A DNA stretch of 64,000 nt. It comes from a virus (taxonomy: Duplodnaviria > Caudoviricetes). Under the pieces are notes generated by a model. That model did not search any database and had not been told where the DNA came from. It was given only the letters and a program-made list of their open reading frames with translations. Shown in pieces: positions 31,980 to 63,448 of the stretch; the stretch's first letter is position 1; every line of letters begins with the position of its first letter. The translations under genes and the position numbers were made by a program. The stretch is taken from IMG/VR virus record IMGVR_UViG_3300005841_000939; one strand, written 5' to 3'.

Positions 31980-33878
31980 ATGCCAATAATTCAAAATACT
32001 ACAAATCATGCAATTCCAGTTGTAATCAGTGGTTCAAGAAAAACTATTAAGCCTGGACAAATTTTGAATGGTCCTCAAGCATTACTTTCAATTCCTGGAC
32101 TTCAACTAGTTCAATCTGAAAAGAAAATTATTATTCCAGATGCAGTAAACAAGCGGGTTGAAGATGTTATGTCATCTGAGACAAGCGTACAACCTACACC
32201 ACCTGAAAAAGTTTCAGTTAATTTTGAATTTATACAAACGCAAGAGGATACTTTGGAAACAGAAAGTAAATTTAATTCTATTAATACATTTTTAAAAGAA
32301 TATAGAGATAGAAATGATGTACCATCAGTAACAATTGGCATATTAACAAAAAATCAATATCAACTTGTCGTTGATTGCTGTGAATCTATTTTCAATAAAG
32401 TTCAATATAAGAATGTGACACTTTTTATTATTGATACAGGATCAAATGATCAAAATGTGAGGAATTATTATAAACTTCTTCCACAAAAATGCGCTGATAA
32501 AAATTGGACTTATCAGTTCATGCAAATTGATCATTATCACTTTAGTCAAAACTATAATTCAGCAGCACGTCAAGTAAAAACTGATTATTTCCTAATTCAA
32601 AATAATGATACAGTTGCATTGAATGATTATGTTTCTCAAATGATGGTTGTTGCGATCAATCAAAAGGTTGGTTCAGTTGGAACGCGCATGTTGTACAAAG
32701 ATGGTTCAATACAACATGATGGCCAATTCATTTACAATGGCCCTAATGGACAAATATCTACACCAGGACATTTGCATCTAAGAGTTAAGCCTGAACAATT
32801 AAATGATCAACAAAACTTTGGAACACACTTGGTAGACGGAAACACTGCCGCTGGTGTCCTTATGAAAACATCAGAATATATTGCCATTGGTGGTATTGAT
32901 GAGGGATATAAAGATATTTTCCAAGATGTTGATTTAATGATGAAAATTACTCCTATGTTGGGTAAATTTAATTATTGTTCAAGAGACGCAAATATTATTC
33001 ACATTGACAATGCAACACGATTAATGCAAGGACATGATCCGAAACGTGCAGCAGCAATGTGGGAAGATACACATTATTTGAAAGATCGTGTTGTTAAAAA
33101 TAACTGGATTTATTCAAAGAAACAAGAACCGGTAGATTTTTCATTTATTACGCTTGTTAGAGATACGCAAAAATATAATCAATTCTTGACTTCGCTTTCC
33201 CAACAAATGGGTGCTAACTCTTATGAAGTTATACCTATTCCAAATTACTTTAATCAAATAAATTCTGCTTTTAGAGGATTGAATATTGGTCAAGATATTT
33301 CAAACGGTAAATATTTAATTTTCTGTCATGATGATATTATTCTTTCAAATAATTGGATTGAACGGTTGAAATATCACATCCGAAACTTAGAAAATAATTC
33401 TATTCAATGGGGTGTTCTTGGACCTGCAGGTATAACTATTGGATCTGAACAAGGTGCATATTTCTTAACAACTGAAACAGGCGAAAATATAAAAATAAAA
33501 GATTCATCAGTAATAAATGATAAAGAAATTTATGAAGTTGGATGCCTAGATGAACTCTGCTTAATTACTAAAAAGTCAACAGGATTACGTTTCTCTGATA
33601 GAGAATTGAGTGGATTTCATTTTTACGGAGGAAATCTTTGCTTAGAGTCTAAGAGACTAGGATTGAGAAACTTCGCTATTGATTGCTGGACATTCCATCA
33701 AAGCGATGGCAATAAAAACGTTTCTAGTAAGGAAAAATTTGATCTTTTCTATGAGTCAGCAAAAACCTTTCAAATGTGGTCCATGAAAAGTGGCATAACA
33801 TCTTGGAGAACAACGACAACCAAGTGTTCCGGTCCACGTCAAGAAGACTTGATGATTTTTATAGATAGCCCCGTATGA
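31980..33878 (+). CDS. Glycosyltransferase with two GT-A (GT2-like) domains
   Basis: First domain IIDTGS, QNNDTV, VGTRML...IQHDG, FQDVDL. Second domain LIFCHDDI, WGVLGPAG, LDELCLI, FHFYG. Confidence 0.85.
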   Translation: MPIIQNTTNHAIPVVISGSRKTIKPGQILNGPQALLSIPGLQLVQSEKKIIIPDAVNKRVEDVMSSETSVQPTPPEKVSVNFEFIQTQEDTLETESKFNSINTFLKEYRDRNDVPSVTIGILTKNQYQLVVDCCESIFNKVQYKNVTLFIIDTGSNDQNVRNYYKLLPQKCADKNWTYQFMQIDHYHFSQNYNSAARQVKTDYFLIQNNDTVALNDYVSQMMVVAINQKVGSVGTRMLYKDGSIQHDGQFIYNGPNGQISTPGHLHLRVKPEQLNDQQNFGTHLVDGNTAAGVLMKTSEYIAIGGIDEGYKDIFQDVDLMMKITPMLGKFNYCSRDANIIHIDNATRLMQGHDPKRAAAMWEDTHYLKDRVVKNNWIYSKKQEPVDFSFITLVRDTQKYNQFLTSLSQQMGANSYEVIPIPNYFNQINSAFRGLNIGQDISNGKYLIFCHDDIILSNNWIERLKYHIRNLENNSIQWGVLGPAGITIGSEQGAYFLTTETGENIKIKDSSVINDKEIYEVGCLDELCLITKKSTGLRFSDRELSGFHFYGGNLCLESKRLGLRNFAIDCWTFHQSDGNKNVSSKEKFDLFYESAKTFQMWSMKSGITSWRTTTTKCSGPRQEDLMIFIDSPV

Positions 33879-39181: not shown

Positions 39182-39784
39182 ATGAAGTTCAATCGCTATG
39201 TAGATTTAGAAGAAGGTAAAGATAATATTTCATTACCTAAACTCTGGCTACATGGCGATAGGAATAAAAGAACTTCATTTAAAGATCAAAAAATGGATCG
39301 TGATCCATATGGGAATGATTCTCCAAATGAAAGCGGTCCGGGTATTTATTTTACACAGCTATTAAGTGAAGCTAGAAATTATGCTGCACCTGATGGGTTT
39401 ATCTATCAATGTGAAATAACACCAAATAAAGTTCTTACTTTAAATACAAAAAACTCTAAAATAGCTATTGAAAAATTGATTAGTTGGGCTGAACCAGAAA
39501 ATCTTAAAAAATATTTGGAAAATTGGGATGAAAATCCCAAATTAGCGTTTAGAAAAGCAGTTTCAAACATGGTTAATCATTATTCAAAATTAATTGATGC
39601 CGCTTGGACTATTTCTAATGATGAGTATGCATATGATCCTAACGGTTGGGCAAATTCAATGCTAAACTTGGGATATGATGCATTTTATAACGAAAAACGT
39701 GATCATTTAATTGTTTACAATCCTAAAATTATTAGAATTGTAAAAGAAATACCATATGGTACTGAAAACGACGAAGAACTTTAA
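39182..39784 (+). CDS. ADP-ribosyltransferase-like protein (ART-PolyVal-type pattern)
   Basis: WLHG....F, GPGIYFT..LSEARNYA, GFIYQCEI; C-terminal LGYDA....DHLIVYNP..I. Confidence 0.55.
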   Translation: MKFNRYVDLEEGKDNISLPKLWLHGDRNKRTSFKDQKMDRDPYGNDSPNESGPGIYFTQLLSEARNYAAPDGFIYQCEITPNKVLTLNTKNSKIAIEKLISWAEPENLKKYLENWDENPKLAFRKAVSNMVNHYSKLIDAAWTISNDEYAYDPNGWANSMLNLGYDAFYNEKRDHLIVYNPKIIRIVKEIPYGTENDEEL

Positions 39785-40200
39785 GCTTCTTCGGTTGAAT
39801 AAATTTCAGGATGATCAAGACCGAACATATAGACTAAATCAGCAGCCTTAGTATTGGCTTCATCTTCCAATTGTTTATTGCGACCTTGCATTTTTTCTGG
39901 AATTCTTTTATCTTCATCTTGCTTATAATGCACTAATTCATGTGCAAGGGTTCTAAAGAAATCTGCCATTGCACGGCCAAGTTTTAAAACAGATACTTCC
40001 TTATCTTTAGGATCATAGCAACCAAATGTCATTCCTTCTTTTCTTTTAGAAAGAATTTTTATTGAAGGTAACTGCTTTATACCCAAGTTTTTAGCTACAA
40101 ATCTTATAAACAATGTTTGAAGGTCTGGTGTGGTATCTTCAATTTCAACAATTAACTTGACCTCAGCATTTTCAAAAAGTAAACCTAAGTTATTTGTCAT
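39781..40200 (-). CDS. Zincin-like metallopeptidase-domain protein
   Basis: RTLAHELVHYKQ (HExxH) with a downstream EDEAN third-ligand-like Glu. Confidence 0.65.
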   Translation of the reverse strand: MTNNLGLLFENAEVKLIVEIEDTTPDLQTLFIRFVAKNLGIKQLPSIKILSKRKEGMTFGCYDPKDKEVSVLKLGRAMADFFRTLAHELVHYKQDEDKRIPEKMQGRNKQLEDEANTKAADLVYMFGLDHPEIYSTEEA

Positions 40201-40209
40201 AGTAATTCT

Positions 40210-40217
40210 TATTTATA
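40210..40217 (-). promoter_or_regulatory. T4-type late promoter TATAAATA
   Basis: Exact motif 9 nt upstream of the ATG at 40200. Confidence 0.75.
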
Positions 40218-40270
40218 TTTTTTAGTTTGATTTATGATACAAAGTGTGTAGTTGTTAGAGTTCAATACAT

Positions 40271-41041
40271 ATGCCAAATGCAATTTTGTTTCACGGAACG
40301 ACATCTCATTTTTTAGATTCTATTGAAAAGGAAGGATTAATACCATTTCCTAAAAATAGAATTTATAGTTTCCATGATGGATCAATTGATTGTTTTAGTA
40401 AAAAAAGTTTAGGTGGAGTGTATCTAACATCTAAACGCGAATCAGCAAAACATGCTGCTGATATTGCATGTGACAGAATCCAAGATGGAAATCCTATAAT
40501 ATTTCAAATTTCAGTTAATTTAAATGATGTTATTGCTGATGAGGATGAAATAACCCCAGGAATAGATCAAGCATGGTATGAGACTGTCTCGTATATGAAA
40601 CATAACTCAAATAATATGGGTGCTATATTAGCTGAAATACAAAATTCATCCTCAGATCATTTTAAACTTAGACATAATTTTATGAATTCACTTCATGCAT
40701 TCATTGGTGAAGGTGATGAAAGAAATGATGAATTATTAGAAAATACATTTTATGGATTAATAAGATTGAAATGTGCTCATTCGCATCATATAGATAAAAA
40801 ACATTTTTGTATTCAATATCAATCACATAATAAATTTTTTAGAAATCATAATGAAGAATTTTCAACATTAGAAGATGAAGAAGATAAGTTTCAGATAATT
40901 GTTGATAAGTTAACAAAACATTATGTTGGATATATCAAAAGCGCATTAGATACTAATTGGTTAGGAATAACCACTTGCCGAACATTACAAACCATTCCAT
41001 GGGAAACTGATAGAGATACAAAAATAATCAAGTTTGAATAA
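40271..41041 (+). CDS. ART-fold protein (Tpt1/KptA- or PARP-like N-terminal motif)
   Basis: LFHGTT..FLDSIEKEGLIP, GGVYLTS....AKHAA, PIIFQISV. Confidence 0.55.
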   Translation: MPNAILFHGTTSHFLDSIEKEGLIPFPKNRIYSFHDGSIDCFSKKSLGGVYLTSKRESAKHAADIACDRIQDGNPIIFQISVNLNDVIADEDEITPGIDQAWYETVSYMKHNSNNMGAILAEIQNSSSDHFKLRHNFMNSLHAFIGEGDERNDELLENTFYGLIRLKCAHSHHIDKKHFCIQYQSHNKFFRNHNEEFSTLEDEEDKFQIIVDKLTKHYVGYIKSALDTNWLGITTCRTLQTIPWETDRDTKIIKFE

Positions 41042-44482: not shown

Positions 44483-45511
44483 ATGGCTGAATCAAAGAAA
44501 CTGCTTAACTTTCCCTCAGATAAGAATGGGTGTGGTTTCTATCGCACAATTATCCCTTTGGGATATTTGAGTGCAAAACTTGAATGGGATACAACATTTA
44601 TGTATCAATTCGTTTTTGATTTAAATCTTGTTCGCATGTCAGATTGGATCAGATTTCAACGTCAATGTACTGATAATCAAATGCGTTGTATTTGGGAATA
44701 CCGTAATTGTATTGATAAGACAGGTGGAAAATCTAGATTAGCATATGAATTAGATGACTTGGTACATGGAATTGAACCGCATAACGTTTTAGCTTACCAA
44801 TTCTATACACCAAAACGTAGAGAAAATGTTGTCAACATCATGAAAATGTCTAATGTTGTAACCTTTTCAACTCCATTTTTGAAGGATTTTTATCAACAAA
44901 ATTTTGGTATTAATCATTCAGTTGTAATTCCAAACTTTTTGCCAAAGTTCTTATGGAATCCTACATTTACTGATAAATCAGTGGGTGGTAAAAAGCCAAC
45001 TGTAGTTTGGGCTGGATCCGCATCGCATTGTGGTCCTGGTGGCGACTTAGAATTCATGATTCCTATGATTGAAGCAACCGTTGATGAATTTGATTGGCTG
45101 TTTATTGGCGTTGTACCTGAAAAGTTGAAAGGTAAAGTTCGCTTTATGCCATGGGTCAACTTTTGGGAATATCCAAGCATGATGCAAACCGTTCGTGCTG
45201 ACTGCGCTATTGCTCCAATTACAGACACAATTTTTAATATGGCTAAGAGTGATCTTAAATATAAAGAATTCGCTGCAATGAATATTCCTATCATTTGTTC
45301 AAGTATTGGAAATGGTAAAGGTCCATATGATTTGGCAAATGCTCCTTTGCTTGTTCAAAATGATCCTGATGCGTTTTATACAAAAATCAAGGAAGTAACT
45401 GAAAATGCTGCTCTTAAAGCAGATGTTTTAGCAAAACAGAGAGCGTACGTTGAACAAAATTGGTTTGAGAATCAATCCTCAATTGACTTATATGATCAAA
45501 CTTATCGTTGA
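44483..45511 (+). CDS. GT-B-fold glycosyltransferase
   Basis: SDKNGCGFYR..P, YELDDLVH, VTFSTPFL, WAGSASH, IAPI..TIFNMAKSDLKYKEF...IPIICS. Confidence 0.8.
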   Translation: MAESKKLLNFPSDKNGCGFYRTIIPLGYLSAKLEWDTTFMYQFVFDLNLVRMSDWIRFQRQCTDNQMRCIWEYRNCIDKTGGKSRLAYELDDLVHGIEPHNVLAYQFYTPKRRENVVNIMKMSNVVTFSTPFLKDFYQQNFGINHSVVIPNFLPKFLWNPTFTDKSVGGKKPTVVWAGSASHCGPGGDLEFMIPMIEATVDEFDWLFIGVVPEKLKGKVRFMPWVNFWEYPSMMQTVRADCAIAPITDTIFNMAKSDLKYKEFAAMNIPIICSSIGNGKGPYDLANAPLLVQNDPDAFYTKIKEVTENAALKADVLAKQRAYVEQNWFENQSSIDLYDQTYR

Positions 45512-45570: not shown

Positions 45571-46956
45571 ATGCGTATTGGTTTTTTAATATCTGATCAA
45601 CATTTTGGCGTTTGTGGTGGTATAGGTCAATTCGCTAAGAGTTTTTGTGAAATGGCTATTCGCCAAGGTTGGGTTGTTGATTTTATTGTTGATAAACCAA
45701 TTAGAAAACGTGAAGGTTCATTAGAAGATACTTTTGAAGCACATCAATTTTTTTATCCAACCAAGCCATTGTCATATGGGACTCACGCAAGCTATTTCCA
45801 GTTTGGTGATTCAATAAATCAAGAAAAAATCATAAATTTCAGAGATTCGGCAGTAAATGCATTGACTCATAATATTTACAATGTCTTTGTTGTAAATACT
45901 CCTGAAGGATTACCAGCATTACATACCCTTTGGGTACATAAACATGTTCCTATTGTATATTACACTCATATTGAAAATATGGTGTTCTTTGATAGTGATC
46001 GTAACGACACATTTCTTGATTCATTTAATCAACAAGTAACCAATTGGTTTACATTGGAGGGTGTTACTGTTGGTACACAGACTGAACAAAATAGAAAAAA
46101 CATTCTAGCAAAATATCCAAAAGCACGCGTGTTATCTTTGCCAATGTTTGTTCCTGAACAAGAGCTTTTGAAAAATAAAGAAACAAAACGTGAAGGTGTG
46201 TTATTCATCGGTAGACACGAACAAAGAAAAAATCCAACATTATTCATAAAAACATTAGTTGATATTAAGAAAAAATATGGTGTTGAATTACTTGCTAAAG
46301 TAATGACACGAGGAACGCATAAAGAAAAGTGGGAAGAAGCATTTGCTGAAGCAGGACTTAAAAACTATATATTGAAATTTGATATTATTGGTAAAGAAAA
46401 AGTTGATTTCATTCAAAGCGCAAAGGTAGCATTCCATCCTTCATTAAGAGAAAGTTTCGGATTTAGTGCCTTTGAAACTCTGCATTCATGCCGAACTATA
46501 TTGATTGAAGAGTTTGCTTGGTGGGAAAATTTTAAAGATTGGCCTAACTTGACTGTTTCTACCAAAGAAAAGGTAGTAGATGATGTTTTTACTCTTTATA
46601 ATTTAGATGCATATGATGCAGAAGAAATTAACAAATATTCAAAAAAAGTATATGACAATACACGATTGGAATGGGGTATGTTTTTTGAAGGTATTTTCAT
46701 GCAAGAAATACTCAATGAATCAGCAAACACATATATGGGAAGAAAAAATCAATTAACTGAATTGATGGATAATAACGATCAAATTAAAGTTTCGGAATAT
46801 TATGCAAATGGATTCCGACAAGATTTATTTGATAAGCTCATGCAGACAAGCAAGAAAAAATATAAGATATTCAATAAAAAAGGATATACTATATTATCAA
46901 ATAAAGACGCGATACGGTATGAAAATAATAATTCAATAACAGATTTGTTTTCTTAA
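45571..46956 (+). CDS. GT4-like glycosyltransferase
   Basis: GGIGQFA N-terminal loop, FIGRHEQRKNP, E-x7-E motif RESFGFSAFETL. Confidence 0.8.
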   Translation: MRIGFLISDQHFGVCGGIGQFAKSFCEMAIRQGWVVDFIVDKPIRKREGSLEDTFEAHQFFYPTKPLSYGTHASYFQFGDSINQEKIINFRDSAVNALTHNIYNVFVVNTPEGLPALHTLWVHKHVPIVYYTHIENMVFFDSDRNDTFLDSFNQQVTNWFTLEGVTVGTQTEQNRKNILAKYPKARVLSLPMFVPEQELLKNKETKREGVLFIGRHEQRKNPTLFIKTLVDIKKKYGVELLAKVMTRGTHKEKWEEAFAEAGLKNYILKFDIIGKEKVDFIQSAKVAFHPSLRESFGFSAFETLHSCRTILIEEFAWWENFKDWPNLTVSTKEKVVDDVFTLYNLDAYDAEEINKYSKKVYDNTRLEWGMFFEGIFMQEILNESANTYMGRKNQLTELMDNNDQIKVSEYYANGFRQDLFDKLMQTSKKKYKIFNKKGYTILSNKDAIRYENNNSITDLFS

Positions 46957-46996: not shown

Positions 46997-47620
46997 ATGA
47001 CGAAAATTAAAGCAAATGGTAATCAGCCTCTTACTGAAAAAGAATTGGCCAAAAAACAAAAGAAAATGGAAAAGGTCTTTCAAGACTTCTTTAAAGTTCT
47101 TGATTTTGATACAGAAAATGATCCTAATATTAAAGAGTCTTCACAACGCATGGCAAAAATGTGGGTTAGAGAACTCCTTGAAGGTAATTTCTCCGAAGAA
47201 CCAAAAATAACTACTTTTCCAAATCAACAAAACACAGACCAAATGATTATTTCTGGTCCTATCAAGGTTGATTCTGTATGTAGCCACCATGGAATTACAA
47301 TTGCCGGTTCATGCTATATCGCATACATTCCAGGTGACGAAGTTATTGGAATTTCAAAATTCTCAAGAATAGTTCGTTTCTTTAGTCGTCGTATGCAAAT
47401 TCAAGAAGAAATGACACAACAAATTTCTGATTACATACAAAACTTGATGAAGCCTAAGGGAATTATAGTGTTCATGAAGTGTCGTCACTTTTGCGAAATT
47501 GCCCGTGGTGTTAGAGAAGAAAATATCTGGATGACTACTTCATCCGTACAAGGTGTTTTTAAAGAAAACGCATCAGCAAGACAGGAATTCTTTAACTTGA
47601 TTAATGTAGGTAACAAGTAA
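46997..47620 (+). CDS. folE: GTP cyclohydrolase I
   Basis: RMAKMW, Zn ligands CSHH, GISKFSRIVRFFSRRMQIQE, HFCEIARGV. Confidence 0.95.
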   Translation: MTKIKANGNQPLTEKELAKKQKKMEKVFQDFFKVLDFDTENDPNIKESSQRMAKMWVRELLEGNFSEEPKITTFPNQQNTDQMIISGPIKVDSVCSHHGITIAGSCYIAYIPGDEVIGISKFSRIVRFFSRRMQIQEEMTQQISDYIQNLMKPKGIIVFMKCRHFCEIARGVREENIWMTTSSVQGVFKENASARQEFFNLINVGNK

Positions 47621-47624
47621 TACA

Positions 47625-48926
47625 ATGGAATACCAATCAGATTTCATTTTTTTCCCTGCCATTTCAATTGCGACACATACGCAAATCATGAAGGCAGATT
47701 TCAAAGTTAAGGGTAAATCTCCAAGATTTTACTTAAATAGTCTTACAGATGATAAGAAGCTATTTAATCATCCTTATATTTTGACATCAGCAGCGCACAA
47801 CTTCAAGAATATAAATTTCATGAAGGATATTGGTGTTAATGATGTGAATAAAGATGTAAATCTGATTTTTGGTGACTCGGGTGGATTCCAAATCAAGACT
47901 GGAGTAATCAAAGATACACCAGAAATAAAGGATAAACTTTATACATGGATGGAAAACAATGTAACAATGGCACCAATCATTGATCATCCACCTACATATA
48001 ATGGAGATAAAGTATCAGAAAAAGATTTTGATGAATATTTGAATAAAACAAAAGAAAATATTGAATATCTTCAAAAGCGTCCAACAAAAAACAAGATTAA
48101 TTGGTTGAATGTTACCCAGGGCGTTCTTTATGAAGACCGTAAGAAGTGGTACGATGCTGTAAAGGACTATAACTTAGATGGTTGGGCTATGGGATCTTTA
48201 AGAAAAGATGCCAGAGTAATTCTAAATGCATTTGCTGTGTTCTTAGAAGGTGGTGAACTGGAAAAGAAAGATAGATGTAAACACATTCACTTCTTTGGTA
48301 TCACTGCAACCAAATACATGCCATTGATGATTTACATCAAGCATAAAATGCATCAAGCTGGATACAAAATTAACGTATCAATGGATAGTTCCTACGCAAC
48401 ACAAAATGGTGGTTGGGGAAAATTCCTATTCTCGCATAACGATTTTGAAGCCATAAATTCAATTGATAATAAAGAGTCATATTTGAGTTCAGAAAAATCA
48501 AAAGGATTCCTATCTTACCATTTGAGTAACAGACTTATTGGAAAGGTTAATGGTGATGTAAATCTTCCATGCTATTGCCCTGTATGTACTGGTATTAAAC
48601 TAAAAGATATTTTAAATGACAATGCGTTAAAAACTGTTGGTGAGTCGTATTACTATAATGTTGTTCAATCACATAACGTGTTCGTTTTAAAAGAATATGT
48701 GAATAGTCTTCAAAATATTATTTACACAAATTCATATGACCTGTACAGTAGCGCATTTAGAAGTTATGATGTATATTTGTTCAAATTAATTGATAAAATG
48801 TTTGATAATCCAAAACAAGCAAGTTATTTAATTGCAAGTGAAGGTGAAAGACTTTCAGATAGAGAAGAACAAGATAAAGCCCAAGAAAAAGAGGGTGAAG
48901 ATATGAAAAATGAGTTCTTTGAATGA
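47625..48926 (+). CDS. tRNA-guanine transglycosylase / DpdA-like base-exchange enzyme
   Basis: GDSGGFQ (catalytic Asp), IIDHP, NVTQG, GWAMGSL, IHFFGI, SMDSS (second Asp), Zn site CYCPVC...H. Confidence 0.85.
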   Translation: MEYQSDFIFFPAISIATHTQIMKADFKVKGKSPRFYLNSLTDDKKLFNHPYILTSAAHNFKNINFMKDIGVNDVNKDVNLIFGDSGGFQIKTGVIKDTPEIKDKLYTWMENNVTMAPIIDHPPTYNGDKVSEKDFDEYLNKTKENIEYLQKRPTKNKINWLNVTQGVLYEDRKKWYDAVKDYNLDGWAMGSLRKDARVILNAFAVFLEGGELEKKDRCKHIHFFGITATKYMPLMIYIKHKMHQAGYKINVSMDSSYATQNGGWGKFLFSHNDFEAINSIDNKESYLSSEKSKGFLSYHLSNRLIGKVNGDVNLPCYCPVCTGIKLKDILNDNALKTVGESYYYNVVQSHNVFVLKEYVNSLQNIIYTNSYDLYSSAFRSYDVYLFKLIDKMFDNPKQASYLIASEGERLSDREEQDKAQEKEGEDMKNEFFE

Positions 48927-49843
48927 ATATGTTATTACATACTACAGGAAAAAGAGACATTGAAGAAATAGAGTGGTGTCCAACATTAGTTAAACCTGAT
49001 GAAATTATGATAAAAACTTGGGCATGTGGTGTATGTCGTAGCGATGTTGCTGCATATGCTGGATGGGAAAAACCAATGCCTTTTGGTCAACAAGGACATG
49101 AGGGGCTTGGGACTGTTACTGCTATTGGTTCAGATATTTTAAATGTAAAAATTGGTGATTATGTTGCAACATGGTCAGATCCTGCATATTCTGATTTTTA
49201 TAAAGCAAAAGTTGGTGAATATGTAAAAGTTCCAGAATTGAAAAAGGATTATATTCTTCAACCATCAGCATGTGCGATCAATATTGCTAGAAAGTTTTTA
49301 GCACAAGCAAGATATGGATGGCCAATTTTAATTATTGGTTCAGGATTTATGAGCTTGATTATTGGACAATACTTAAAAATACTTGGTAGAGAAGTAGTTG
49401 TGGCAGGGTCATCACATAAGTCTGAATGGGATAAAATAGGTATACCATTAACATCAGTGAATGAACTTGTTGAAAGTGGAAAGAAGTGGAAAGGTATCAT
49501 TGATTTAAGTAGTAAAGCTGAAAATTTTGATTTAATCAGTAAACATCTTGGTGATGTTGAAGCAGTTATTTGTTATGCTGCAACACCATTTACTCCTGTA
49601 ACTACAAATTTCTTTGATTCGTGCTGGAATTGTCATACATTCATCATGCCAAGTCCAAGAAATAAAGATTTCAATGACATGATGAGATTGACCGCAGAAT
49701 TAATTTCTTTAAACAGAATAACAGTTGGCAATTATTGGACGCAAGAATACAATAGATCATCTATGACCGAAGTTAAACAAGCATTTGAAGACGGAGTCAA
49801 TCGTCCAAGTGGTTATTTACGCGGCTACATTCGCTGGAACTAA
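48923..49843 (+). CDS. Zn-dependent medium-chain dehydrogenase (MDR)
   Basis: CGVCRSD and GHEGLG catalytic Zn motifs, IIGSGFM nucleotide-binding loop; lacks the 4-Cys structural Zn lobe. Confidence 0.85.
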   Translation: MNMLLHTTGKRDIEEIEWCPTLVKPDEIMIKTWACGVCRSDVAAYAGWEKPMPFGQQGHEGLGTVTAIGSDILNVKIGDYVATWSDPAYSDFYKAKVGEYVKVPELKKDYILQPSACAINIARKFLAQARYGWPILIIGSGFMSLIIGQYLKILGREVVVAGSSHKSEWDKIGIPLTSVNELVESGKKWKGIIDLSSKAENFDLISKHLGDVEAVICYAATPFTPVTTNFFDSCWNCHTFIMPSPRNKDFNDMMRLTAELISLNRITVGNYWTQEYNRSSMTEVKQAFEDGVNRPSGYLRGYIRWN

Positions 49844-49845
49844 TT

Positions 49846-50913
49846 ATGAACGTTTATATTATGGCCCTTGAGGCAATTGAAAGTCGTTATACCTGGTATT
49901 GGGAAACAGAATTAGAAAAACGTATTAATGAATATATTAAAAACGATATAACTCTTAATGAAAAAAATATAAAAGTAATAACTTTAAAAGGTGATGATGA
50001 AGATAATGAAGTAGTAGCTACCCAAGGTGCATTTCTAAATTTCACAACAACAAATGCATGGAAAAATAGTCAGATGAATAAGCTAATTGGCTTATTTAAG
50101 AGTGGTGAAATAAAACCAAAAGATAAAATAATATTTCCTGATGCATGGCATCCTGGTATAATTCAAGTTAGATACATCAGTGAATTGACTAAAGTACCTG
50201 TATCAATTTATTCACTTTGGCATGCTGGTAGTTATGATTATCAAGATTTTTTAGGTAGAGAAATTCAAGATAAAAGTTGGGTAAGACACGCAGAAGCAGC
50301 ATTCTTTGATGCATCTGATTACAATTTATTTGCTACTAGATTTCATAAATCAATGTTTATGCAAACATTTAAATATAGAGTAAATAAGAATAAAGCGCAT
50401 ATTGTAGGATTTCCATTTCAATATATAAAAGATGTTAAGCAACCTGAAGTAATTAAAGAAAACATTATTCTGTTTCCACATAGAATAAGTTCCGAAAAAC
50501 AACCACAAGTATTTAAAGAATTGGCAAAGCGTATTCCAGAATATCAATTTATAATTTGCCAAGAAAAGAATTTATCTAAAACGCAATATGGTAATTTGCT
50601 TGCTAGATCAAAAATGGTATTCTCTGCGAATCTACAAGAGACACTTGGTATTTCATGCTATGAAGGTGCAGTAAACGGAGCATTACCCTTCGTTCCTGAT
50701 AGATTATCATATAAAGAAATGTATCCAAAATGGTGTCAGTATGAAGGATATTTAACTGGCGGTAGTTTGGAATCACGATATTTAGATATTTTATCATTTA
50801 TGGTGAAGGATATGCTCGCAAATTATGATGAACATGCAAAGAAATTGCCAAGTTTGGTGAAACGTCTAGATCGTTTCTTTACAATGGATAAAATGTTACA
50901 GGTTATATTTTAA
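49846..50913 (+). CDS. GT4-like glycosyltransferase
   Basis: FPDAWHPG, WHAGSYD, FPHRISSEKQPQVF, E-x7-E motif QETLGISCYEG, PFVPDRLSY. Confidence 0.8.
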   Translation: MNVYIMALEAIESRYTWYWETELEKRINEYIKNDITLNEKNIKVITLKGDDEDNEVVATQGAFLNFTTTNAWKNSQMNKLIGLFKSGEIKPKDKIIFPDAWHPGIIQVRYISELTKVPVSIYSLWHAGSYDYQDFLGREIQDKSWVRHAEAAFFDASDYNLFATRFHKSMFMQTFKYRVNKNKAHIVGFPFQYIKDVKQPEVIKENIILFPHRISSEKQPQVFKELAKRIPEYQFIICQEKNLSKTQYGNLLARSKMVFSANLQETLGISCYEGAVNGALPFVPDRLSYKEMYPKWCQYEGYLTGGSLESRYLDILSFMVKDMLANYDEHAKKLPSLVKRLDRFFTMDKMLQVIF

Positions 50914-50917
50914 TAAT

Positions 50918-51094
50918 ATGAAAATAAAATATGATCTTTCTTATAAACATGTAGCTGGTGTTGGACCACTACCTCATATAACATTGGATTTGGATTTTAC
51001 TATAGAAGAAAAACCAATCTTGATGGAAGTGTTAGAAGAAATTAAAACCGCAACAATCATTAAGAGAAAAAATGAAAATAACAGTAAAAACTAG
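50918..51094 (+). CDS. Small hypothetical protein (58 aa)
   Basis: Below the ORF-track cutoff. MKIKYDLSYKHVAGVGPLPH...KNENNSKN* fills the gap in the operon. Confidence 0.5.
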   Translation: MKIKYDLSYKHVAGVGPLPHITLDLDFTIEEKPILMEVLEEIKTATIIKRKNENNSKN

Positions 51095-51425
51095 TTTCCC
51101 AGGTATTCATCGTTGGAAAGATGCTCCCGAACAAGTGGATTTTCTACGAAGTTTCCACAGACATATTTTTAACATTTCTTTTTCTCTTGAAGTGACTCAT
51201 GCTGATAGAGAGCTTGAATTCTTTGTATTAAAATCAGCAGTAGATTCATATATTGATGCTAAGTGGTCAAATTATAAAAATAACCATAATTTGAAATTTT
51301 TTGGAGATGATTCTTGTGAATCTCTTGCGTTAGCTATAAAAACTTTTCTTGAAACTGAATACGGTTCTGGTAGAAAAGTATCTGTAAAAGTTCAAGAAGA
51401 TGATGAAAATTATGGTGAAGTATGA
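51072..51425 (+). CDS. Divergent QueD/PTPS-like T-fold protein
   Basis: GIHRW ... HRHIF (three His, compare QueD AAH...HGH), DRELEF, SCESLA, VKVQEDDEN; lies in an operon with folE. Confidence 0.65.
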   Translation: MKITVKTSFPGIHRWKDAPEQVDFLRSFHRHIFNISFSLEVTHADRELEFFVLKSAVDSYIDAKWSNYKNNHNLKFFGDDSCESLALAIKTFLETEYGSGRKVSVKVQEDDENYGEV

Positions 51426-51880
51426 ATGAAAGTAAATTAATTACAGCCTTTGATATGGATGGCGTTATTGTATCCGATATTAATATGGATTATAATAATC
51501 CCGAGCAACTTGAAAAAATAAAACAAATTCGTATGGTTTGTGAACCAATTTTCAGACCACATGGCACATTTGTTATCATTACCGGTCGTCCAGAAAATGA
51601 GCATGATCAGACTTGGCAATGGCTGGAAATGTATAATGTAAAACCACAAAGAGTTTTCTTTAAACCAGAGCAATACGATTTCTCAAAACAATCAATAATT
51701 GATCATAAGGCAAGAACTATTCGTGAGTTGAATAGAACATTATACTATGGGTATGTCACAAAATTTGTTGAAAGTGATAAAACTCAAGTTGAAGGTATTT
51801 CTAAGCAAGTTGATATTCCTGTAATTCATTTTCCAGTATTTTCAAGCAATGCGTTAGTACATGCAGGATGGTGGTACTAA
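51422..51880 (+). CDS. HAD-superfamily phosphatase
   Basis: Motif I FDMDGV, motif II ITGR, Lys in DHKA, acidic motif FVESD. Confidence 0.8.
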   Translation: MNESKLITAFDMDGVIVSDINMDYNNPEQLEKIKQIRMVCEPIFRPHGTFVIITGRPENEHDQTWQWLEMYNVKPQRVFFKPEQYDFSKQSIIDHKARTIRELNRTLYYGYVTKFVESDKTQVEGISKQVDIPVIHFPVFSSNALVHAGWWY

Positions 51881-52168
51881 ATGCCAAAATATACACCTGA
51901 TGAACTTAATAAATTGCTTTTTAATAAAGTAAATCAAGCTATTAGTTTACATGCAATAGGTGATAATAAAAAGTCCGCAATTACATTAGCAAGTGCTGCC
52001 AGAATTCTTGATCGTTGGGATCGTTTAGTCAAAAATCCACCAGTAAAGAAAGAAAAACATATTGAAGAAAGTGTTGTAGAAAATGATCCAGGACGACGGC
52101 AGAGAGAAGGAACTGATAAAAAAGTTCAAACTGAAACAAGCTCCGAGTCGGAAACGTCAGGATCTTGA
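51881..52168 (+). CDS. Hypothetical protein
   Basis: Starts immediately after the HAD stop; the 3' 86 nt overlap the next ORF. Confidence 0.55.
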   Translation: MPKYTPDELNKLLFNKVNQAISLHAIGDNKKSAITLASAARILDRWDRLVKNPPVKKEKHIEESVVENDPGRRQREGTDKKVQTETSSESETSGS

Positions 52169-52730
52169 CGCTTTTTTGCATTATAAGCGTATCAGTTATG
52201 ATTTTGAATTAAAATCAACAACAGTTGGTGATGTTTCAACTGCAAGTCCAGTGACAATTGATCACATTAAAAAATGGCGTCATATACATTGGTTAATTGG
52301 AATTTATGATGAAACCACTGTTAAATTAAAACATGTTTTATATGCTAGTCCTGATATGATGACCGATTGGTTGAATGCACAAGAAGAAGATATTCAACGC
52401 GGTCTAACAATTTCACATGCGCTAGCTGGAAAAATTGATTACGACCTACTTTTTAAAATATTTGGAGAGAAACCTTTCTATACATTTGAAGAAGCTAAAA
52501 AGGTCTACAAGAAATTGTGGACTAAAAACGAATATATGTTGATGTCAGATATTCCTGGTGGATATTCATCAGAAACTATGTTGAAAATGTTCCAGGATCA
52601 CAACTTATCTTATATGATAAGAGGTAGCTTCTTAAATAATCCCAAGATAACGAAAAAGTATACCGATAAGTTCATTAAAATAGATGGTGATTTTGCTAGA
52701 ACACTGCGTAAAATCATTAGTCCAACGTAA
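52083..52730 (+). CDS. PD-(D/E)xK nuclease resembling a type II restriction endonuclease
   Basis: QDDGRE (N-terminal Glu), DLDA, FELKST catalytic pattern, HIKKW..HWLIGIY. Confidence 0.6.
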   Translation: MIQDDGREKELIKKFKLKQAPSRKRQDLDAFLHYKRISYDFELKSTTVGDVSTASPVTIDHIKKWRHIHWLIGIYDETTVKLKHVLYASPDMMTDWLNAQEEDIQRGLTISHALAGKIDYDLLFKIFGEKPFYTFEEAKKVYKKLWTKNEYMLMSDIPGGYSSETMLKMFQDHNLSYMIRGSFLNNPKITKKYTDKFIKIDGDFARTLRKIISPT

Positions 52731-60656: not shown

Positions 60657-61694
60657 ATGGAACGTATTTTAATTGTTACAGGATGTGCAGGATTTATTGG
60701 ATTTAATTGGTTAAAATATTATCTCAAAAATAATAAGACTATTTGGGGCAGTATTGTTTCTATTGATAGTTTTACATATGCAGCACAATATAATATTGAA
60801 GAATATTTAGATTTATGTAAAACTCATGGAATTATTCATATTGAAAAAGATATTAATCTTTTATCAAATAAAGAATATGTTGAATTTTCTCCTAAGAGTT
60901 GGGATGCAAAATATACTGTTTTGAATTTCGCATCACAAAGTCACGTTGATAGAAGCATTGCAAGTCCATCGCAACTTTATTTTGATAATATTGGAATCCC
61001 AGCATCGTTAATTGATTGGTTAGGTGGAACTCAAAAGATTGAAGTTTTTAATCACATTAGTACAGATGAAGTTTATGGCGATATTAAAATTTCTGAGAAG
61101 GATGACAAATCAAAATGGTTCACCACAAAGAGTCCATTCAATCCAAGTAATCCTTACAGCGCAAGTAAAGTAGCTCAAGAAGCCTATTTGATGTCACTAT
61201 CAAGAACGTTTGGGTTGAATCTTCAAATTTATCGGATGGGAAATCAATTTGGAAAACATCAACATCCGGAAAAAATGTTGCCAATCTCAGTCCTTCGTTC
61301 CATGGCAAGTCGTCCAATAAAAATTTATGGTGAAGGCAAGAATTGCAGATTATGGACTTATGTTGAAACCACTGCAAAGATTATTAGTGATCGTTTGGAA
61401 AATCCTGTAGATAAAAATCCAAAACATCCTCAAGATATTTTACATATTGCCGATAAACGTTTCCTAGTTGATAATAATTATATAGTTGAATTGATACGAT
61501 TGACACTAAAACAAAAATATGATATAACAACATCCGTTGAATATGTTCCTGATCGCAAAGGTCATGATGAAGTGTACGCATTGATTACTGAACCAGCAAT
61601 TGATCAATATTTTACAAATTCATTGCAAGGAACAATTGAGGAAATAGTAGAATTTTACGTACAAGGATACAAAAATGCAACCTATGACAATTGA
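60657..61694 (+). CDS. rmlB: dTDP-glucose 4,6-dehydratase
   Basis: VTGCAGFIG, ASQSHVDRSI, HISTDEVYG, NPYSASK, NQFG..QHPEK, VPDRKGHD..Y. Confidence 0.93.
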   Translation: MERILIVTGCAGFIGFNWLKYYLKNNKTIWGSIVSIDSFTYAAQYNIEEYLDLCKTHGIIHIEKDINLLSNKEYVEFSPKSWDAKYTVLNFASQSHVDRSIASPSQLYFDNIGIPASLIDWLGGTQKIEVFNHISTDEVYGDIKISEKDDKSKWFTTKSPFNPSNPYSASKVAQEAYLMSLSRTFGLNLQIYRMGNQFGKHQHPEKMLPISVLRSMASRPIKIYGEGKNCRLWTYVETTAKIISDRLENPVDKNPKHPQDILHIADKRFLVDNNYIVELIRLTLKQKYDITTSVEYVPDRKGHDEVYALITEPAIDQYFTNSLQGTIEEIVEFYVQGYKNATYDN

Positions 61695-61974
61695 TTCTGA
61701 TAGAGAAGAATTACATGGATATTTTAAACAAGAAATTTTGCCATTAATTAAACAAAAAGAACACACGCAAGAGTTTAAAAAATCAATTGATACTCTAATA
61801 TCAAATAAATTTGGAATAAAATACAAAATTATCGTTAGATTCTATGATGATACGGTTCGTGTTTCTGCCCATAAGAAATCAAATGGTATCATATACTTTA
61901 TGGCAGCAACATCCGAGAACAAAGCTGATTATGATTTCAGCAATGAGGGTTGGGCTACTACTTTTTTTAAGTGA
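61675..61974 (+). CDS. Hypothetical protein
   Basis: 99-aa ORF between rmlB and the rmlC-rmlD fusion. Confidence 0.55.
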   Translation: MQPMTIDSDREELHGYFKQEILPLIKQKEHTQEFKKSIDTLISNKFGIKYKIIVRFYDDTVRVSAHKKSNGIIYFMAATSENKADYDFSNEGWATTFFK

Positions 61975-61981
61975 GATATAA

Positions 61982-63448
61982 ATGACAAATACGGTTGGAC
62001 ATAAAGAGCTTGAAAATTGGTGGGATGGCCGCGTCATAATTGATGAATTAAAAGAATTTGTTGATGCCCGGGGTTCGCTCACTGAATTATGGCGAAATGA
62101 TGATGATAAAGCAAAGGTAACTGAAAAAGATGAAACAAATTCATCTTTTTATGAACCGTGTATGTCATATTGGAGTGAAACAAAACCATTCGTACAGAGA
62201 GGTCCACATGAACATGTAGGACAAACTGATGTGTTTGTGACATGGAAAGCACGAATGATTTACAATCTTTATAATCCTGTTACAAAAGAAATGAAATATT
62301 TTGTAACTGACCCAACAAAAATTTATCGTGTAAAAGTTGGTATTGGCATTATTCATTCATATAGAAATATTGGTTTTTCAGATTCATTAACTGGCAATTT
62401 TCCAACATCATTATTCATGGGTTTGGATAAAAAGGGATGGAAAGATGGGCAAAAAGTTGATGAAATTCGTCATGAAGAAGAAGTAAAACCAGAGATAACA
62501 TATTGGTTGCTTGGTGCTGGTGGTCGTTTGGGTAATTCTTTCTTAAAATCTCTTCATAAGAAGATGGGTTATCACACATTCAACGTTATTCCTTTATTTG
62601 ATAAATTTGCAAACAATAAAGAAGGTTATGATAAGTTGAATGTTTTGTTGGAAGAAATTAAGAAGACAAAAAATAGTGTAATTATCAATTGTGTTGCTTA
62701 TACAAATACGGCTGATACAGGATCAGCATTACATAATGCATGTAATACATCACTACCAACATATTTGACATCATTTGCTGCATTAGAAAACGTACCATTA
62801 ATCCATTTCAGCACTGATTATGTTTATCAAACGGGCGCATTAAATGCTTATACTCAAAGCAAAATGCGTTATGAATCATGGCTTAAAGATTCAATATCAT
62901 CATCACATATCGCAGAATTTAAAGCAGCAAAAGAAGCCGAAATTCAAGATATGGAAAATAGTTCAATGGATGAAATAACAATAGAAGCATATCGGACAAA
63001 ATTTGAAGAGGTTGTTTCTACCTTAGAAAAAAATAAAGCTGATATTGAAAAAAATGTGCGTATTTTAAGAGTGGCGAATTTGTTTTCTGTTGATACTAAA
63101 GAAGATATGTTTGATAAAATTTATGCAAAAATTAAAGATGGGTCAATACGTGTACCATTTAAGAAGTGGTCAACCCTTCCAACATCAACGGATGACCTAG
63201 CTGATTGGGTCGTAAGTGATGTTTTGAATAGTTTTGACAAATTCAATGTATTTACTAATGTAAGTGGTAAGCAATATACAATGGAACAAGTTGTTAAGGA
63301 TCTATTCAAGAGTAATATTCCTATCATAGAAACTAATAATGCATTGGTAGACCTTAATCATACTGCTTTTATTTCAGACAATGCTGTTATAATCAATTGC
63401 GAAAAATCCATCCAACAAAAAATTAGTAAAATAACAGCACATGAGTAA
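61982..63448 (+). CDS. Fused dTDP-4-dehydrorhamnose 3,5-epimerase / reductase (RmlC-RmlD-like)
   Basis: N-terminal cupin DARGSLTELWR...QRGPHEH...IIHSY. C-terminal SDR GAGGRLG, INCVAYT, HFSTDYVY, YTQSK. Confidence 0.85.
   Translation: MTNTVGHKELENWWDGRVIIDELKEFVDARGSLTELWRNDDDKAKVTEKDETNSSFYEPCMSYWSETKPFVQRGPHEHVGQTDVFVTWKARMIYNLYNPVTKEMKYFVTDPTKIYRVKVGIGIIHSYRNIGFSDSLTGNFPTSLFMGLDKKGWKDGQKVDEIRHEEEVKPEITYWLLGAGGRLGNSFLKSLHKKMGYHTFNVIPLFDKFANNKEGYDKLNVLLEEIKKTKNSVIINCVAYTNTADTGSALHNACNTSLPTYLTSFAALENVPLIHFSTDYVYQTGALNAYTQSKMRYESWLKDSISSSHIAEFKAAKEAEIQDMENSSMDEITIEAYRTKFEEVVSTLEKNKADIEKNVRILRVANLFSVDTKEDMFDKIYAKIKDGSIRVPFKKWSTLPTSTDDLADWVVSDVLNSFDKFNVFTNVSGKQYTMEQVVKDLFKSNIPIIETNNALVDLNHTAFISDNAVIINCEKSIQQKISKITAHE

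Follow-up and report, generated by a model that had tools for sequence, protein, structure and literature searches.

The stretch of DNA analysed here, 64,000 nucleotides in length and referred to below as the window, is part of the genome of a T4-like jumbo phage, and the TGT-fold protein with which this analysis is concerned is recorded on a contig of 379,560 bp. The structural genes of the window lie on the minus strand, and around the TGT gene are found ribonucleotide reductase, gp46/47, gp55, a polymerase, UvsX, a helicase and gp32, the gene names having been read from the sequence together with Pfam matches on syntenic relatives. The gene order through the locus is GT342, GT461, folE, TGT, Zn dehydrogenase, GT355, an ORF of 58 aa, a QueD-like ORF and a HAD phosphatase, followed by an ORF of 95 aa, a PvuII-like nuclease, an ORF of 142 aa and the polymerase. 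The genes of interest are:

44483..45511, plus strand: GT342, a glycosyltransferase and core gene of the clade, at the left edge and outside the module, kept in relatives without the cassette
45571..46956, plus strand: GT461, a second GT4-type glycosyltransferase, with a homolog between folE and dpdA in cyanophage BUCT-ZZ01
46997..47620, plus strand: FolE, GTP cyclohydrolase I, first step of 7-deazaguanine synthesis (PF01227, E 1e-49)
47625..48926, plus strand: DpdA-type TGT-fold guanine transglycosylase of a long D-x-P clade, 433 aa (PF01702, E 3.6e-6; fold Z 19.5-21.3; trees)
48923..49843, plus strand: Zn-dependent MDR dehydrogenase, an optional accessory of the DpdL/GT355 module (PF08240, E 3.4e-11; in 25 of 79 GT355 loci)
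49846..50913, plus strand: GT355, a GT-B, GT4-like glycosyltransferase tied to DpdA and DpdL across phages (model, co-occurrence)
51072..51425, plus strand: DpdL homolog, a QueD-like T-fold protein of 117 aa with the motif LxxxHRHxF (31% identity to phiST CGPG_00067, E 8e-10)
51422..51880, plus strand: HAD-family phosphatase, present in both cassette types of the clade
52083..52730, plus strand: PvuII-like nuclease, at the right edge and independent of the module, kept in relatives without the TGT (PF09225 matches in relatives)

The outermost of these genes were not retained as parts of the module. GT342 was set aside as a member on account of its presence in relatives without the cassette, and the PvuII-like nuclease was rejected as a restriction partner of the modification, two relatives (L209 and L211) keeping the nuclease with no folE or TGT at the locus; the 92%-complete genome of L211 gives no TGT match, and CAGCTG does not occur in the window. 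Some relatives lack the whole folE-TGT block yet have GT342 and the polymerase, two of them the nuclease as well, and this absence of the block between retained flanks marks it as an optional island. No methylase is seen beside the nuclease, which the jumbo-phage clade conserves whether or not the deazaguanine island is present and for which no homolog was found in cultured phages; single-protein viral scans with the nuclease, GT461 and the dehydrogenase returned no useful matches. FolE is present in the 64-kb window with no QueD, QueE or QueC, and neither QueF, QueA nor tRNA genes were seen in it. Elsewhere in the window, at 60657-63448 and 31980-33878, lie an RmlB-like dehydratase, a double GT2 and a 488-aa RmlD-domain protein in which RmlC and RmlD are probably fused; the set possibly supplies dTDP-rhamnose. 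At 39182-41041 stand two ORFs of 200 and 256 aa that start with L-F/W-H-G motifs, which we take to be reminiscent of ADP-ribosyltransferase-like or 2'-phosphotransferase-like domains; the 256-aa ORF matches only phrog_13493.

Within the TGT ORF, the following elements could be placed:

47874..47891, plus strand: DSGGFQ, with D84 as the putative general acid/base, counterpart of S. Montevideo DpdA Asp95
47982..47990, plus strand: D120-H121-P122, the base-binding Asp, a variable residue and an invariant Pro at the bTGT Cys158 site (alignments)
48117..48122, plus strand: Q165-G166, where Gln and His alternate among close relatives (alignments)
48180..48200, plus strand: GWAMGSL loop, G186-L192, after which the bTGT loop is about 5 residues shorter here
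48378..48392, plus strand: SMDSS, with D254 as the putative nucleophile, counterpart of DpdA Asp256
48438..48503, plus strand: lineage-specific acidic insertion of about 20 aa, of low model confidence (alignment, model)
48570..48674, plus strand: Zn site C316, C318, C321 and H350 (motif)

The roles of the two counterparts, acid/base for Asp95 and nucleophile for Asp256, are those described for S. Montevideo DpdA (PMC10164549). The Pfam scan gave the 433-aa ORF a PF01702 score of 26.7 bits against a cut-off of 26.3, and phmmer with the single protein against the PDB matched no TGT. The predicted model (pLDDT 82.6) is a TIM barrel with TGT topology, which superimposes on arcTGT, bTGT, QTRT2 and bDpdA with Z 19.5-21.3 and an rmsd of 3.5-3.9 over 296-308 aligned residues, against Z of at most 11.5 for unrelated barrels; the scores to tRNA enzymes and to DNA enzymes are nearly tied, the top matches being arcTGT and bTGT. 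In an alignment with 90 relatives, D84, D120, P122, H222 and D254 are invariant. The ORF is thus a real, intact TGT-fold enzyme of a T4-like jumbo phage.

The motifs on which an earlier, sequence-only reading of this DNA had relied (DSGGFQ, SMDSS, IIDHP, QG, GWAMGSL and CxCxxC...H) are all found in the ORF. That reading had further placed a His at the Cys site of the bacterial enzymes and had seen in it an altered substrate pocket, for which the register was off by one: the E. coli D-E-C aligns with D120-H121-P122, and the Cys158 site is occupied by Pro122, a Pro that the ORF shares with its 90 relatives and with P. horikoshii arcTGT (which reads D-I-P). His121 as a change of specificity was therefore dropped as a register error at a variable site (the 20 closest proteins have H, V, C or A there), the ordinary bTGT of T. 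maritima itself reading D-H-C. The GS in place of GG, also taken as a mark of an altered pocket, is indeed there; it is common in the clade, being present in most close relatives with GG in one that is 57% identical, and is seen in a haloarchaeal TGT as well. The insertion before the Zn site, put at about 35 aa, shrinks to about 18-20 aa over relatives and 24 over E. coli, the region measuring 48 residues in the TGT ORF versus 28-30 in relatives and 24 in E. coli; it occurs in 3 of 20 relatives, and the model falls below pLDDT 50 at residues 272-293. Neither the GS loop nor the insertion could be kept as a product marker, since both are the same in a relative with a QueC-type cassette (L106) and GG occurs in one with a DpdL-type cassette (L011), and the Zn site was discarded as a distinguishing trait, its cysteines having been lost repeatedly across the wider clade. 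Judged by alignment, each of His121, GS and the insertion either varies or is confined to a lineage, and none of them tells QueC-type cassettes from those of the DpdL/GT type, which makes the flagged pocket residues ordinary. In bTGT, Cys158 and Val233 shape the pocket. The differences from bTGT that hold in the alignments are the Pro for Cys158, a Phe at the Met260 site and a shorter loop after G-S-L: in a pairwise profile alignment, about 5 residues that follow G-G-L in the bTGT loop (A-V-G-E segment) are left unmatched. As sequence features these differences speak against a preQ1/tRNA enzyme without naming a base.

With regard to its relatives, the ORF has 19 at 44-77% identity, which make up a tight group, and a profile of the family gathers 763 representatives at E<=1e-10. 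Its matches in cultured organisms are phages, at 22-33% identity, and a pattern-limited scan of 185,579 cellular genomes returned only 5 loci at 22-24%. In a 61-row tree, which included four bTGTs, was built without true arcTGT, bDpdA and DpdA4 and carried long-branch warnings at deep nodes, the query falls in a 49-row group (SH-aLRT 87) with PA5oct, BCSR5, Amme-1 and Vibrio 2.275.O, and this group adjoins the DpdA2 core of nt-1, VH7D and ACP17. Phylogeny against bTGT and the DpdA subfamilies, which the sequence-only reading had proposed, thus sets the query outside bTGT and beside the DpdA2 core: the grouping with bacterial tRNA TGTs that would have counted against that reading is rejected in constrained trees (p-AU 0.020, with four bTGTs), a grouping with DpdA2 not being rejected (p 0.10). 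The wider family profile agrees in scoring the DpdA2 of nt-1 and VH7D at E 1-3e-4 versus 0.064 for E. coli Tgt, and in a whole-genome search it recovers nt-1 (E to nt-1 of 1e-4 to 1e-6 overall), with no match in the genomes of phiST, CP220, 2-6A and RHph_I1_18. The placement rests on this wider profile and the trees, as hhalign gave noisy results with single sequences, ranking E. coli Tgt, over a 71-column stretch, above nt-1. Against cellular models, the ORF has no match to TIGR00430 (bTGT) and scores 24.6 bits to TIGR00432 (arcTGT) against a cut-off of 350; its best cellular profile matches are models of tRNA TGTs, all far under cut-off. No homology was found to 9g DpdA, NF041059 or the PADLOC DpdA, which sets it apart from DpdA1/bDpdA, and the Pfam scan gave no match to DUF6610, the DpdA4-type family. 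Membership in the validated DpdA3 (phiST, CP220, 2-6A) was rejected, that being a separate family of about 260 aa with no profile match. The His conserved in DpdA1/bDpdA (9g H196) is described as lacking in DpdA2; the ORF has Gln165 at this site, but roughly half of its close relatives have His, as does nt-1 itself in the alignment made here.

As is the case for phage DpdA, a viral TGT homolog is here clustered with 7-deazaguanine genes, namely folE and dpdL at this locus and folE with queC/queE or dpdL in relatives. By profile and tree, we file the ORF as a DpdA-type enzyme of a large unnamed long clade beside DpdA2, and neither as DpdA2 nor as DpdA3. The clade has been seen earlier but never delimited: Cui et al. 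list the PA5oct enzyme as DpdA3 and that of BCSR5 as DpdA2, the latter together with the enzyme of ACP17, which in the tree belongs to the DpdA2 core (PMC10516641), and the DpdA3 column of Data S1 of Cui et al. 2023 holds the short validated family plus the 540-aa PA5oct enzyme of the long clade. In the published DpdA3 list, short validated enzymes thus stand together with one or more long ones from the clade of the TGT ORF. Members of the PA5oct branch were also observed in bacterial assemblies (L119-L123, MAGs of Pseudohongiella, Sphingomonadales and Pseudomonadota); for most of them no que gene was detected up to 6 kb away, and one has DpdL; one Pseudohongiella chromosome carries two copies. 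In one phage cluster with QueD, QueE, FolE, DpdL and GT355, two tandem TGT paralogs (L033:8664-11110) are found, both without the usual Q/H-G motif.

The nearest validated enzymes, by profile and by viral fold search and with weak similarity, are the DpdA2 of Vibrio phages nt-1 and VH7D, which are validated DNA insertases (Hutinet 2019, PMC6884629; Cui 2023, PMC10516641). Like these, the TGT ORF is a long TGT (400-460 aa) directly after folE in a T4-like phage, with DSGGxQ, the three Asp and the Gln/His variation. It differs from them in standing on a separate branch (DpdA2 core SH-aLRT 99), in having D-x-P where they have D-E-I-P, in keeping the Zn site that both lack, and in its DpdL/GT cassette as opposed to their QueC/QueF/ArcS; there is no direct BLAST match between them. 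With Cellulophaga phage phiST (DpdA3 with FolE, QueD, QueE and DpdL) it shares FolE and, beside the TGT-fold gene, a DpdL homolog bearing LxxxHRHxF, whereas the enzyme itself is not detectably similar to the DpdA3 of phiST, CP220 and 2-6A (about 260 aa, without the Zn motif). The cluster of DpdA, DpdL and GT355 is also found in cultured PA5oct/Paride, ACP17, BUCT-ZZ01, X1 and BCSR5; the TGTs of the latter four and of PA5oct are at most 22-26% identical to the ORF, that of PA5oct belonging to the same wide clade. Fold and the three Asp are shared with P. horikoshii arcTGT (1IQ8, Z 21.3) and S. Montevideo bDpdA (7UI4, Z 19.5), from which the ORF differs in an identity of 13-16%, in lacking the arcTGT C-terminal domains (433 versus 577 aa) and in having no dpdB-K genes in view.

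In every examined locus of the closest relatives (44-77% identity), folE directly precedes the TGT, and after this pair come two alternative cassettes. One consists of QueC, a phosphoribosyltransferase-like gene and HAD, sometimes with QueE and GT2 (L009, L010, L024, L104, L106, L108 and L109), and the other of DpdL and a GT355-family gene (the query, L001 and L011). The TGT of L106 is 73% identical to that of the query and has the same pocket motifs at all positions examined except Met for Leu192; it is followed by a QueC cassette, with no GT355 nearby, and nests among DpdL-type members in the tree, which suggests that the cassette was exchanged with almost no change of the pocket. Such near-identical pockets in front of QueC and DpdL cassettes imply that the TGT is probably tolerant of the substituent at C7. 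As for the purine phosphoribosyltransferase-like gene (L009:11716-12204, L106:7954-8448), it is seen in QueC cassettes and in 56 of 79 GT355 loci, is absent from the window, and may salvage the released guanine.

The glycosyltransferase GT355 was followed separately. Its model (pLDDT 92.7) has the GT-B fold and reaches Z 25.4 to GT4-type enzymes, and its homologs number in the thousands. When 79 viral loci were picked only by similarity to GT355 and their neighbours were scored within 8 kb, every locus was found to contain a deazaguanine gene, DpdL being present in 68, TGT in 67, FolE in 61, QueE in 54 and QueC in none, although these loci include many related phages and the counts overstate independence. 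Both the TGT (DpdA) and DpdL occur in 37 of the 38 loci with full flanks. The linkage spans the DpdA2 core and the clade of the TGT ORF, whose enzymes are about 25% identical to each other. Among cultured phages, ACP17 and PA5oct have a GT355 homolog placed between dpdA and dpdL; X1, BUCT-ZZ01 and BCSR5 have one next to dpdA/dpdL, and Phosso has one beside dpdL, with a dpdA-like gene about 170 kb away; in Sinorhizobium phage Phosso, an annotated glycosylase gene directly precedes dpdL and GT355 (L017:5017-5550). No QueC over the cut-off was found in the five whole genomes of PA5oct, Phosso, X1, ACP17 and BUCT-ZZ01, in all of which QueD-family genes or an annotated QueD are present. There are exceptions to the pattern: in three loci without DpdL (L030, L036 and L046), GT355 and a QueC-TGT pair lie about 5-8 kb apart, from which GT355 may serve QueC-derived bases too, and in five Xanthomonas/Erwinia records it is distant from the TGT. 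In ACP17 (L004:6779-9462), the gene between dpdA2 and dpdL, gp124, was observed to be a GT355 homolog (33.5% identity, E 3e-45). Expression of ACP17 dpdA2 and dpdL in E. coli gave no dDG, for which the authors suspected missing enzymes (Cui 2023, PMC10516641); that gp124 was left out of the test is one possible reason. No glycosyltransferase is mentioned in the text of Cui et al. (PMC10516641), which counts eight known 7-deazaguanine bases in phage DNA, none with a sugar, and a literature search among openly available papers on glycosylated deazaguanine, DpdL follow-ups and DNA modification in PA5oct/Paride found nothing.

Taken together, these observations lead us to propose, at a probability of about 85%, that the TGT ORF is a phage DpdA-type DNA guanine transglycosylase, probably active. 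DNA is read as the substrate because folE, the dpdL homolog and the DNA polymerase flank the TGT and because the bTGT grouping was rejected; the earlier suggestion of an active transglycosylase on DNA thus stands, on gene context, phylogeny and intact catalytic residues, and not on the pocket residues from which it had been drawn. The contrary view, that the protein modifies host tRNA at G34 or G15, could appeal to the cellular profile matches, far under cut-off as they are, to the arcTGT-like D-x-P, the Phe at the Met260 site and the intact Zn site, and to arcTGT and bTGT as top fold matches. It is made very improbable by the rejected bTGT grouping (in a tree without true arcTGT), by the lack of Cys158, of arcTGT C-terminal domains and of a full preQ1 loop (L-A-V-G-E, here shortened), and by a linkage to DpdL and DNA polymerase in a window where no QueF, QueA or tRNA genes are seen. 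More far-fetched still is a non-catalytic reader of deazaguanine, or a protein-directed enzyme in the manner of the TGT-fold Cap10 of type IV CBASS: the Cap10-CdnD structure 9ntn does match the fold (Z 14.5), but it does so 5-7 Z units below true TGT/DpdA, the three catalytic Asp are invariant, and no CBASS-like partners are nearby.

In the mechanism that we propose for this DpdA-type enzyme, by analogy with TGT and bDpdA, D254 would attack C1' of a selected dG after replication, releasing guanine and forming a covalent D254 intermediate, whereupon D84 would activate the incoming 7-deazaguanine base to take the place of guanine. The base would be supplied from GTP through the phage FolE, QueD (of the host or from elsewhere in the genome) and QueE, giving CDG, which the DpdL homolog, a proposed CDG decarboxylase whose step is unproven in the literature too, would convert to 7-deazaguanine. 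GT355, with the dehydrogenase and perhaps GT461, would then most likely add a sugar to the modified base, as its linkage suggests; 7-deazaguanine could offer N2, O6, C7 and C8 as acceptor atoms, to which CDG would add a carboxyl. The purpose would be protection from host restriction, with replacement that is probably partial or motif-limited, as is known for DpdA1/DpdA2. A precedent for glycosylating a modified DNA base exists outside the deazaguanine field: T4 DNA alpha-glucosyltransferase puts a sugar on hmC, and is likewise a GT-B enzyme of the gp55-gp47-gp43 region of a T4-like phage. It differs from the proposed role of GT355 in acting on a pyrimidine, and its match to the GT355 model (Z 17.5) lies below those of small-molecule GT4 enzymes (Z 25).

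That 7-deazaguanine in DNA is glycosylated by the GT355 family, with the dehydrogenase and the second GT as optional tailoring enzymes, is a tentative proposal to which we give somewhat less than even odds, and the same caution applies to the accompanying idea that the unnamed clade TGT is a general inserter, with phages altering the final base by swapping QueC for DpdL+GT cassettes while the pocket stays unchanged. Of the unusual base claimed in the sequence-only reading, the neighbours DpdL, GT-B glycosyltransferase and dehydrogenase keep the possibility alive, and the TGT pocket contributes nothing to it. About as plausible is that the same DNA transglycosylase yields a known final base (dDG, dCDG, dPreQ0 or dADG) and that the GTs act on virion proteins or host glycans, which amounts to a sub-case of the preferred scheme minus the sugar step. 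It would agree with phiST, which has DpdL and dDG and in which no GT355 homolog was detected, with the other glycan genes of the window (RmlB-like, RmlD-containing, double GT2), with the independence of GT342 from the module and with the resemblance of GT355 to small-molecule GT4 enzymes; harder to reconcile with it are the 79 loci in which GT355 is never away from deazaguanine genes, its position between dpdA and dpdL (ACP17, PA5oct) or beside dpdL (Phosso), and its occurrence with both the DpdA2 core and the distantly related clade of the TGT ORF. It has also been considered that the GT glycosylates a free base, either a deazaguanine or a pterin intermediate, and that the TGT inserts the bulky product directly, which is the closest form of the earlier unusual-base idea. 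The loop after G-S-L, shorter than in bTGT, could open the C7 side, and Cui et al. model DpdL on the free base only (PMC10516641). A pterin glucosyltransferase, 5zer, is among the fold matches of GT355, but at Z 20.5 it does no better than many other GT4 enzymes, and L106, 73% identical and with nearly the same pocket, has a QueC cassette without GT355 nearby, so that direct insertion of a glycosylated base is unlikely.

How complete the modification might be can be approached through restriction sites. Over window positions 1-64000, TCGA occurs 4 times versus 82 expected, and as the ratio in relatives is roughly 0.36-1.0, the window is far more purged. CAGCTG is found 0 times versus 6.4 expected in the window and once versus 10.5 in the clade loci; the window has no AGATCT, CTTAAG or CACGTG, and GATATC occurs 4 times versus 16. 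The purge of TCGA suggests pressure from a TaqI-like host enzyme, and the avoidance of TCGA and CAGCTG argues against full protection by base modification: full replacement of G would make such avoidance needless, which leads one to expect partial or motif-limited modification. phiST replaces all G; in the query phage TCGA is avoided all the same. The site avoidance could also predate the arrival of the folE-TGT island.

What makes the locus interesting is the unnamed clade, the exchange of cassettes and a proposed, so far undescribed glycosyltransferase step. The query and the 73%-identical L106 lend themselves to a paired comparison of the base that DpdA inserts in DpdL phages, and if the glycosylation proposal is true, a module very common among T4-like phages of water and soil would make a new sugar-bearing purine in DNA.
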